Of a stretch of DNA of 32,000 nucleotides, positions 19,001 through 19,780 are shown piece by piece. The stretch comes from Demequinaceae bacterium. Lineage in GTDB: Bacteria; Actinomycetota; Actinomycetes; Actinomycetales; Demequinaceae. A program made the translations under genes and the position numbers. Location: positions 1,800,001 to 1,832,000 of the forward strand of contig OZ252279.1 in the NCBI GenBank assembly GCA_965250005.1, given 5' to 3'. Below the pieces are notes generated by a model that saw nothing but the letters and a program-made list of their open reading frames with translations, was not told where the DNA came from and searched no databases. Position 1 is the stretch's first letter. Each line of letters begins with the position of its first letter.

Positions 19001-19780
19001 CGCTGGTACGACCCAACAACAGCCCGCTTCCTATCGGCAGACCCATGGCACGGCAACCCCGCCAACCCCATCAGCCTCAACCGGTATGCGTACGCCAACG
19101 CCGACCCCGTCAACCTCCACGACCCGACAGGGCTTGCGGTGTTGACCGATACCCTGGCCGCCGCAGAGATCCGCGGCGCTCTCGCTGGAATTGCGCTCAG
19201 CCTCTACGGGTTGGCGACTCTGAAGGCAATCGAGGCGATGGTCGGCGTTGTAGCGCCGCCTGGTGAAGCGCCGCTCCCGCCCGGTGTTGAGGATCCCCGC
19301 AACGATTCAGAGTTCTCCCTGAACGCGGCGCCGGATTGGCTCAAGTATCCAACCAGAACGGACTCGCGGGTAACCGTATACCGGGTCTGGGGTGGGATAT
19401 CTGATCCGTTCGGCGCATCCTGGACGACCGTCGACCCCAGGTCCATTGAAAAGGAGTTCGGGACCGGGTCGTTCCGCTACTACTCAGGGATCCCCTACGG
19501 AAACACGGCTGAGTGGGTAACCACCGGCGTACTCGAGGCGCGCGCGACAGTCCAATTCCAAGACGCACGTCAGATTGCTGGCACCAACCCGCTCGAGAGC
19601 GATTTTGGCTATCTAGTGGATGGTAATGGCGGCCGCGACGTAACGCAGAACGGCGGAGGTGTTGTGCCAGAAGTCATTATCCCTGGAGGTTGCGCTAATC
19701 CAAGCATGATTTGTATCTCGCACGATAGGTTGGATTCTAGTTGGGGACCGAGCGAAGGCGACTTTGTTTGGCTTCCATAG
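16064..19780 (+). CDS. Orphan rhs cassette 2 (5'-truncated; 1238-aa ORF) with toxin region CT-2
   Basis: Homology to the main gene begins at ~16097 (= main 5984) and runs colinearly to DPTGL (19121-19135). It has no signal peptide or N-terminal domains. The only available start is a TTG at 16064 without an SD site, 10 nt after the preceding stop codon. Confidence 0.85.
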   Translation: MTHRAYDSVAFARDSSGRVTAVTTPGGLVTDYRYDGAGDLVAVTDPEGYVTNYAYNSKHYLTGIIDPLGRVPARNEYDEDGRLVAIVDAQGNRIEINADPDARTQTVTDRLGNVTVQTFDAGGYLIGQVFADGTTEAYTNDALGNRTSRTDGLGNTWTATYDASQNRTSVTDPLGNTKTWTYDASNRLISATDVLGRTTAVTYDARGNATTVTYPDGTQVTFTYDAAGNMLTETDESGRTTTNVYDATGRRTSTTSPGGSVTSYTYDADGRISTVTDAEGGVTARTYDGRGLITGSTDALGALSQSGFDALGQRTSYVDAVGGTSSMAYDELGQMTSRTSPTADVSSYVYDAAGRMVGSTSPDGVVRTTAYDVLGRVLSSKVDGVTVSSRIYDAAGRVVTATNATGNTTSYGYDAAGRTIQVSFADGTTATTAFDAAGQVTSMTSPTGTTSYVYDVRGRATSVTGLDGTVTSYTYDAAGRVLTQTAADGAVTTFTYDADGRMASASDPLGNTAQVSYDGNGQRVSVVDPLGRTRVWTLDAVGRLLTYSVAGASQLTQIFDAAGRLTSRTLGDGTLTAYTYDASGRLTAIDYTDRADATFTYTDAGRRATVTDHRGTTSYGYDSQGRLTSVASPEGSIGYGYDAASRMVSITTAAGTTTYVRDDLGRISGVTDPEGGVYAIGRDTAGRVSTVTYPNGVTETFTRDAAGRVMSVTVTDALGTVLASHTAQRDVAGRITVLDDVFAGVVGAADVSRDFGYDAAGRLTQVVSDATGTASTTDYVLDGLGNRASTSTDGTVVASTVNDLDQLTSQGSNAFTYDDAGHLTSATGPGGTSTFAWSSQGELLTAATPSGTVDYAYDTDGNVTTRTETGVAVDFVYDTVSGLPRAVSATDGTWWVYADGMVLAQHTGTGSTTPGTTAYLHGDVRGDVRTVTDATGTVTDTFTWTVDGQLTARTGTTTVTVGWRGETVDTTTGLIWLRARWYDPTTARFLSADPWHGNPANPISLNRYAYANADPVNLHDPTGLAVLTDTLAAAEIRGALAGIALSLYGLATLKAIEAMVGVVAPPGEAPLPPGVEDPRNDSEFSLNAAPDWLKYPTRTDSRVTVYRVWGGISDPFGASWTTVDPRSIEKEFGTGSFRYYSGIPYGNTAEWVTTGVLEARATVQFQDARQIAGTNPLESDFGYLVDGNGGRDVTQNGGGVVPEVIIPGGCANPSMICISHDRLDSSWGPSEGDFVWLP

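Follow-up and report, generated by a model that had tools for sequence, protein, structure and literature searches.

A large, uncatalogued toxin-domain family at the tips of three orphan Rhs cassettes in a Demequinaceae bacterium

Three orphan rhs cassettes, lying downstream of a full-length rhs gene in a 32,000-nucleotide stretch of a Demequinaceae genome (assembly GCA_965250005.1, contig OZ252279.1, positions 1,800,001 to 1,832,000 of the forward strand; hereafter the window), end in tails (CT-1, CT-2 and CT-3) that share one C-terminal domain. This CT domain represents a large and widespread toxin-domain family that is absent from the libraries searched, and it forms the toxic tip of a polymorphic Rhs system, an ordinary orphan array with an uncatalogued family. 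The conserved residues and the predicted fold suggest that the domain may be a nicotinamide adenine dinucleotide (NAD+)-dependent toxin, acting in the cytoplasm by ADP-ribosyl transfer or NAD+ hydrolysis through a miniature, divergent ADP-ribosyltransferase (ART)-like fold, a reading to which we give an even chance.

All three tails are in frame with the Rhs core preceding them and begin directly after a DPTGL motif, the junction reading ...ADPWHGNPANPISLNRYAYANADPVN(M/L/G)HDPTGL in each cassette, and the cores lack the N-terminal delivery part while retaining 84-87% nucleotide identity to the 3' part of the nearby full-length gene. CT-1 (13181..13825, plus strand) comprises a hydrophobic, proline-rich linker (13181-13438) and the toxin domain (13439-13822), CT-2 (19136..19780, plus strand) a linker with a hydrophobic helix (19136-19351) and the toxin domain (19352-19777), and CT-3 (22353..22997, plus strand) a linker followed by the toxin domain (22569-22994). 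A six-frame translation of the window scanned with the hidden Markov model (HMM) of the family contains exactly three copies, and the open reading frame (ORF) from ATG 20784, which belongs to cassette 3 and CT-3, is 100% identical to a database protein (P0198). The original prediction of one domain common to the tails at 13181-13822, 19136-19777 and 22353-22994, with CT-1 as the divergent copy, is borne out by pairwise comparison, CT-1 and CT-2 being 33% identical over 202 columns (E 2e-21) and CT-2 and CT-3 79% identical overall (E 2e-130). The MAFFT alignment of the three tails has 68 invariant columns, which cover every motif block quoted there: (V/L)(T/A)VYRV(W/F)GG, (A/N)SWTTV(D/N)P, GSFR(Y/E)(Y/F)SG(I/L)P and (V/G)VPEV(I/L)(I/V).GGC(A/S)NP. 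CT-2 and CT-3 had also been described as near-identical apart from the last ~20 residues; the divergence of that end holds (40% identity over the last 20 residues), whereas "near-identical" overstates the likeness of the linker (79%) and the core (85%).

An exhaustive HMMER search of 1.84 billion cluster representatives (clusters at 50% identity, E<=1e-3) extended the family to 262 representatives, almost all of which match over their last 95-107 residues, the proteins ending 95-107 amino acids after the VYRV motif. Many of the hosts are RHS-repeat proteins; others carry PT-TG or SpvB/TcdB/FG-GAP domains or are short fragments. Scanning species-representative genomes identified 19 loci in about ten phyla, distributed among Alphaproteobacteria, Verrucomicrobiota, Bacteroidota, Actinomycetota, Leptospira, Omnitrophota, Desulfobacterota, Planctomycetota, Acidobacteriota and Dormiibacterota. 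The family consensus reads VYRVWGGxSGPxGxSWTxV(D/N)PxxxxNYRxxAGLPxxNTGxFxxxGxLxxxxGVxxRxAxPLDGNxGGLPExxIPNP, and the window copies fall into a small subgroup with the database proteins P0002, P0003, P0004, P0010 and P0044, distinguished by inserts, a GGCxNPxxxC motif and a C-terminal extension. Three further proteins of low-G+C origin (P0046, P0077 and P0092; 1234-1341 amino acids) have a non-Rhs architecture, in which a DnaJ (J) domain is N-terminal and this toxin domain C-terminal; the conserved motif C(L/F)W(V/I)PAS(V/I)(K/R)H(D/E)...(V/F)YGGV(S/N)(I/V) precedes the toxin domain in all three and also occurs in P0117. Such J-domain proteins could be effectors acting inside host cells.

None of the libraries searched contains a model for the domain. 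Pfam and NCBIfam returned nothing at E<=1 for the three tails and the downstream ORFs and no match for 58 members tested singly or for the family consensus, PHROGs and PADLOC had no match for 49 members, and PDB sequence searches with profiles and the family consensus left the toxin domain unmatched, retrieving only a stretch of the Rhs core (8fjp) and a chance enolase; these library negatives hold even at E<=1-10. A literature search on the motif strings found no matching paper, and the toxin tables of Zhang et al. 2012 list no family with matching motifs. The original prediction, which could assign the domain to no named family, was therefore right in the sense that all searches of Pfam, NCBIfam, PHROGs, PADLOC and PDB sequences were empty, and "uncatalogued" is used here relative to these five resources. 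An early genome scan with patterns drawn from the three window sequences only found no relatives. A word-indexed homology search with CT-2 also gave no match, a result that is uninformative because P0198, the 100% match of the CT-3 ORF, is in the collection searched; that search listed neither P0198 nor P0001, both present in its collection, so its negatives do not equal absence.

Conservation was counted over 149 family sequences, with residues numbered from window position 19352. Near-invariant positions are Y10, R11 (146 sequences), S23 (131), W24, T25 (144), R42 (138) and N51 (147), and a Gly-Leu-Pro motif is likewise invariant across the family. Position 107 is Glu in 141 of the 149 sequences and Gln in five, and overall Y10-R11, S23-W24-T25 and E107 are conserved in 88-98% of members. 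Alternation between Glu and Gln at a catalytic position, as seen at residue 107, is typical of ART and NADase enzymes. The predicted key residues Arg, Ser, Thr, Arg, Asn and Glu are encoded, in this order, at 13472-13474, 13508-13510, 13514-13516, 13565-13567, 13592-13594 and 13712-13714 in CT-1, at 19382-19384, 19418-19420, 19424-19426, 19475-19477, 19502-19504 and 19670-19672 in CT-2, and at 22599-22601, 22635-22637, 22641-22643, 22692-22694, 22719-22721 and 22887-22889 in CT-3. The two Arg and the Glu that had been singled out as invariant in the window copies are thus near-invariant across the 149 relatives as well. The His and the Cys pair named beside them fared differently: the His of CT-1 lies four columns further on than a common downstream His would require and the position is mostly Val in the wider family, and the Cys pair, two residues seven positions apart in the window copies (19691-19693 and 19712-19714 in CT-2), is subgroup-specific and occurs in only about eight of the 149 members. 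Neither the His nor the Cys pair can thus be catalytic for the family; the two Arg and the Glu make an enzyme plausible.

An AlphaFold model built on 56 sequences is confidently predicted (predicted template modelling score, pTM, 0.74; predicted local distance difference test, pLDDT, above 90 in the core) and has six strands; prediction from the three-sequence alignment only was useless (pLDDT 28). In the model, strand 1 (residues 6-13) carries R11 close to its end and strand 2 consists of Ser-Trp-Thr (23-25); two helices follow, the second of which carries R42, then strands 3 and 4, and a long loop leads to strand 5 (106-109, with E107) and strand 6. A 26-residue insert before the Glu of CT-2, specific to the subgroup of the window copies, is disordered. 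ARTs of the R-[ST]-E clade have a split six-stranded beta-sheet of order 4-5-2 / 1-3-6, with an aromatic-Arg pair at the end of strand 1, [ST]-x-[ST] on strand 2 and a catalytic Glu, often within Q/ExE, where strand 5 begins. The predicted order of elements is that of the minimal ART fold, and R11, S23-T25 and E107 are modelled on strands 1, 2 and 5, where TreX and TreThr are described as having their R, S/T and E (PMC11606950; PMC13617354). When the model was compared with the PDB by Foldseek, ART-superfamily toxins made up nine of the top 13 matches (TreX, MbcT twice, Res twice, ParT three times, and PltA; ranks 1-5, 8-10 and 13), none of them statistically significant, and viral matches, also not significant, included PARP-like proteins and an RNA 2'-phosphotransferase. 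The crowding of the first ranks with ART-fold toxins does not look random, a judgement that is an inference rather than a computed probability. The earlier suggestion of an RNase-like fold is not supported by the structural matches, among which there is no RNase and of which the top ones, weak as they are, are ART-superfamily toxins.

Several results weigh against an ART-like fold. Foldseek found no significant match in the PDB, and hhalign gave probabilities below 1% against CT-A1, PT-S1 and C3, of 0.1% against the RES toxins (ParT, 8GUG and Res) and of 0.2-0.3% against three solved TNT-family NADases; no ART family profile in Pfam or NCBIfam matched the 58 members or the consensus. In addition, the family has no ExE/QxE motif, the model joins strands 1 and 2 by an unusually short link, and S23 is not strict (131/149). 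The lack of any library placement, in ART families or others, and the statistical insignificance of every fold match would suit the main rival of the ART-like reading, namely another, possibly new, enzyme fold that serves as a metal-independent RNase or nuclease through Arg/Arg/Glu/Asn, or as another hydrolase of a cytoplasmic target. Solved members of the RES domain are NAD+-using toxins of ART fold. RES shows the same set of residues (two Arg, one Glu, one Ser), which makes it a precedent for the ART-like reading, and was first predicted to be an RNase (PMC3482391), conserved Arg/Glu constellations being found in RNases too. However, the family lacks a conserved His, the top 25 PDB matches include neither RNases nor nucleases, abundant as such structures are, while ART-fold toxins lead the list, and R, S/T and E sit in the model on the strands expected from the ART scheme, so that we regard another fold as rather unlikely. 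Known metal-independent RNase toxins (barnase, EndoU, colicin and RelE types, and the two-His Ntox group) were considered as candidates and rejected: the His position is mostly Val, Foldseek returned no RNase and no Ntox or RNase model of Pfam matched.

Within NAD+-using enzymes, the domain might specifically be a TNT/Tse6-type NAD(P)+ glycohydrolase that kills by NAD+ depletion only, with no transfer. The TNT pattern R..G...R.LP....GG..Q resembles YRVWGG ... R..AGLP ... GG.PE of the family, Gln replaces Glu in five members and Rhs proteins are known to carry such NADases (PMC10539506), yet the TNT palm has seven strands in another order (PMC10539506), the Pfam TNT model matched neither the 58 members tested singly nor the family consensus, the hhalign probabilities against solved TNT-family enzymes are those given above, and no TNT, Tse6, Tne2 or AfNADase structure is found in the top 25 Foldseek matches. 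Taken together, these points make the glycohydrolase alternative quite improbable, and membership of the TNT family itself (PF14021) is rejected on the Pfam, hhalign and Foldseek results. Membership of the RES family (PF08808) was likewise rejected, there being no Pfam match, an hhalign probability of 0.1% and only weak Foldseek matches.

The ORFs downstream of the tails, 244-262 amino acids long, begin 6-53 nucleotides past each CT stop codon, and the public assembly annotates two of them as genes. I-1 (13831..14565, plus strand; 244 amino acids) starts 6 nucleotides past the stop of CT-1, I-2 (19821..20609, plus strand, ATG at 19821; 262 amino acids) is a called gene, and I-3 (23050..23820, plus strand; 256 amino acids) follows CT-3. 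These are presumed to be the cognate immunity genes, the role of I-1 being assigned from its position only, and Pfam, NCBIfam and PDB searches were empty for I-1 and I-2 alike. I-1 is unrelated to I-2 and I-3, showing no similarity to I-2, and I-2 and I-3 are 61% identical overall, with 28% identity over the first 95 amino acids and 76% over the other 167. Since divergence is concentrated in the last 20 residues of the toxins (40%) and the first 95 amino acids of the presumed immunity proteins, the mosaic pattern suggests that specificity may be set by the end of the toxin and by the N-terminal region of its immunity protein.

At the loci elsewhere (the 19 together with two earlier ones), the gene directly downstream falls into two recurrent families, one of ~110-126 amino acids with the motifs PDFYLASxEGY...RDDLLL...PPLIGQxYG and one of ~60 amino acids with GMTVNERLYxSGL...FDxA; the loci concerned form two groups, L002-L008, L010, L011, L016 and L017, and L001, L009, L012, L014, L015, L018 and L019. 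Recurrent downstream gene families of this kind are the signature of toxin-immunity pairs, and neither of the two is matched by a Pfam model. HMMs of the immunity families from the other loci found no match in I-1, I-2, I-3 or the rest of the window, and the genes downstream of the closest subgroup relatives (P0002 and P0003) are unrelated to I-1, I-2 and I-3. Turnover of immunity genes is usual among polymorphic toxins. In an Acidimicrobiales metagenome-assembled genome (L020:1816-2589), a window-like toxin copy is followed by a gene whose product has an N-terminal region weakly similar to the 110-126-amino-acid immunity family (E 5e-4), fused to two PF03457 "helicase associated" (HA) domains.

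When the sequences were read by eye, no signal peptide or membrane helix was seen in I-1, I-2, I-3 or the two families elsewhere, and presumed immunity proteins without such signals argue for toxin action in the cytoplasm. Action outside the cytoplasm, on the cell wall or membrane, with the Cys pair as a stabilising disulfide of an extracellular Gram-positive toxin, would suit a monoderm actinobacterium that has a Sec-type Rhs protein and no injection machinery in the window, as well as the two Cys seven residues apart in the window copies. Against it stand not only the signal-less immunity candidates but also the lack of a Cys pair in ~95% of the family and of any similarity to wall hydrolases or pore formers in the library and Foldseek searches, and we consider an extracellular target very improbable.

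In the favoured reading of the system, the full-length Rhs protein (524-9592) would leave the cell by means of its signal peptide, its YD shell would enclose the C-terminal toxin, and self-cleavage at the DPxGL motif would release the toxin. Over 1.3-3 kb the three orphan cassettes remain homologous to the 3' end of the full-length gene, so that recombination could replace the expressed tip with CT-1, CT-2 or CT-3 and the immunity gene behind it. Export, self-cleavage and cassette swapping are taken here from established knowledge of Rhs systems. In the proposed ART-like domain, NAD+ would bind in a cleft lined by the Tyr-Arg pair that ends strand 1, the Ser-Trp-Thr of strand 2, the second Arg, on the helix that follows, and, where strand 5 begins, a catalytic Glu that a few members replace with Gln. 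Such a toxin may then transfer ADP-ribose to an essential cytoplasmic target, or merely destroy NAD+, and the signal-less downstream proteins would neutralise it by binding.

The locus surrounding these cassettes has a G+C content of 60-66% and begins with the full-length rhs gene (524..9592, plus strand), which encodes a Rhs/YD-repeat protein of 3022 amino acids. Pfam identifies He_PIG, Big_9, FG-GAP_3, Cadherin_4/5 and DUF6531 in its residues 1-1820; the N-terminus is signal-peptide-like, suggesting a secreted protein, and the C-terminal end has a YD shell and a DPxG...DPTGM cleavage motif. Its C-terminal toxin is another domain, outside the CT family according to its translation and the family HMM. 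Five 5'-truncated copies of the 3' core lie downstream in self-blastn comparison, a classical orphan array and an ordinary kind of system. Cassette 1 (11840-13825, plus strand) has a core fragment (11840..13180) with 84.5% nucleotide identity to main rhs 7682-9023, with which self-blastn aligns 11840-13181. An IS3-family insertion sequence (10553..11844, minus strand; Pfam HTH_Tnp_1, rve and HTH_21), with orfA at 11467-11844 and orfB at 10553-11470, both on the minus strand, splits this cassette from a detached 5' remnant (~10160-10527), of which 10353-10527 corresponds to main rhs 7503-7677. Inside the remnant, an (ACGGCA)x9.7 microsatellite at 10311-10369 lengthens a Gly-Asn run in a YD repeat. 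Cassette 2 (16064-19780, plus strand) has a long core fragment (16064..19135), lacking the N-terminal delivery part, with 87% nucleotide identity to main rhs 5984-9019, and the core fragment of cassette 3 (20721..22352 within 20721-22997, plus strand) is 87% identical to main rhs 7351-9019 and 85% identical to cassette 2.

Cassette 4 (23874..25397, plus strand) has 93% nucleotide identity to main rhs 8150-9336, and its toxin differs from the CT family, with no match to the family HMM; the fifth truncated copy is a core stub at 25788-26152. The tails of the main Rhs protein (8990-9592) and of cassette 4 (24801-25397) share a linker with 93% nucleotide identity up to 9336/25108 and end in two unlike toxin domains of ~80-100 amino acids each, for which Pfam and NCBIfam return nothing. 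Small ORFs of 64 or 72 amino acids follow these two genes (9598-9792 and 25382-25600); they have no Pfam match and are possible immunity genes. Two longer ORFs between cassettes, at 15157-16053 (plus strand, 298 amino acids) and 26190-26996 (minus strand, 268 amino acids), also without a Pfam match, occupy positions where orphan immunity or accessory genes might be expected. A second IS3-type transposase gene (rve, HTH_21; 27294-28133, minus strand) between the Rhs array and TetR-glmU-prs brings to two the insertion sequences in or beside the array, and the TetR gene, glmU and prs close the window. The Prs protein encoded there shares 85-89% identity with its counterparts in Demequina species, which points to a Demequina-like member of the Micrococcales (Actinomycetota).

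Polymorphic toxin domains have repeatedly yielded new enzymology, including DddA deaminase base editors, Tas1 and RNA- or tRNA-targeting ARTs. The CT family is broad (262 clusters, about ten phyla), compact (~95 amino acids) and, like the two common immunity families, missing from the five resources named above. Given how often Rhs tips lack annotation, the finding is more useful than it is surprising. Should the domain prove to be a minimal ART, the lower size limit of that fold would move down, and a new target might come with it. A further reading, in which the family is either a new clade of minimal NAD+-using toxins or a toxin fold that is new altogether, of ~95 residues with an R-[ST]-R-N-E active site and a target and chemistry unlike those of described ART/NADase toxins, spread over many phyla with two new immunity families and recruited into large J-domain effector-like proteins for eukaryotic or other hosts, is possible if doubtful. 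The Demequina-like locus offers a natural test set, with three diverged copies of one toxin, one unrelated and two mosaic immunity genes, and is convenient for mapping toxin-immunity specificity.

Among known systems, the array is most readily compared with the orphan rhs/cdiA cassettes of Enterobacteria (Poole et al. 2011, PMC3150448; Koskiniemi et al. 2014, PMC3967940), where tandem 5'-truncated cores likewise follow a full-length gene, each with its own C-terminal toxin and immunity gene and with homology permitting recombination into the main gene; here, in contrast, the array belongs to an actinobacterium and carries one toxin family three times in diverged versions, with presumed immunity genes that are unrelated (I-1) or mosaic (I-2/I-3). 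The Rhs-borne R-S-E ART toxins (TreX of Xenorhabdus bovienii, PDB 8S2M, Tre1 and TreThr) are small C-terminal toxins released after DPxGL from a Rhs shell and followed by an immunity gene, as is predicted for the CT domain; in TreX and TreThr an Arg closes strand 1, strand 2 carries Ser/Thr and strand 5 the Glu (PMC11606950; PMC13617354). TreX is the top Foldseek match of the CT model in the PDB (E 0.096, not significant). Unlike this group, to which it has no detectable sequence or profile similarity, the CT domain has a single Glu rather than ExE, a very short connection between strands 1 and 2, a core ~30 residues shorter and a Gram-positive producer with a Sec-type Rhs protein rather than a type VI secretion system. 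The RES toxins (MbcT, Res of Xre-RES and ParT), at Foldseek ranks 2-5, 8, 9 and 13, share the two Arg, Ser and Glu and an ART-like fold, which for the CT domain is predicted; they are type II toxin-antitoxin toxins of ~145-185 amino acids and not secreted polymorphic tips, although RES also occurs in polymorphic toxins (PMC3482391). The TNT/Tse6/Tne glycohydrolases, including the C-terminal domains of Serratia Rhs1, resemble the CT domain in their Rhs/PAAR delivery, in their linear motif (R, R..LP, GG..Q/E) and in having immunity proteins from many unrelated folds (PMC10539506), and differ from it in that Pfam, hhalign and Foldseek lend the CT domain no support as a member of their group.

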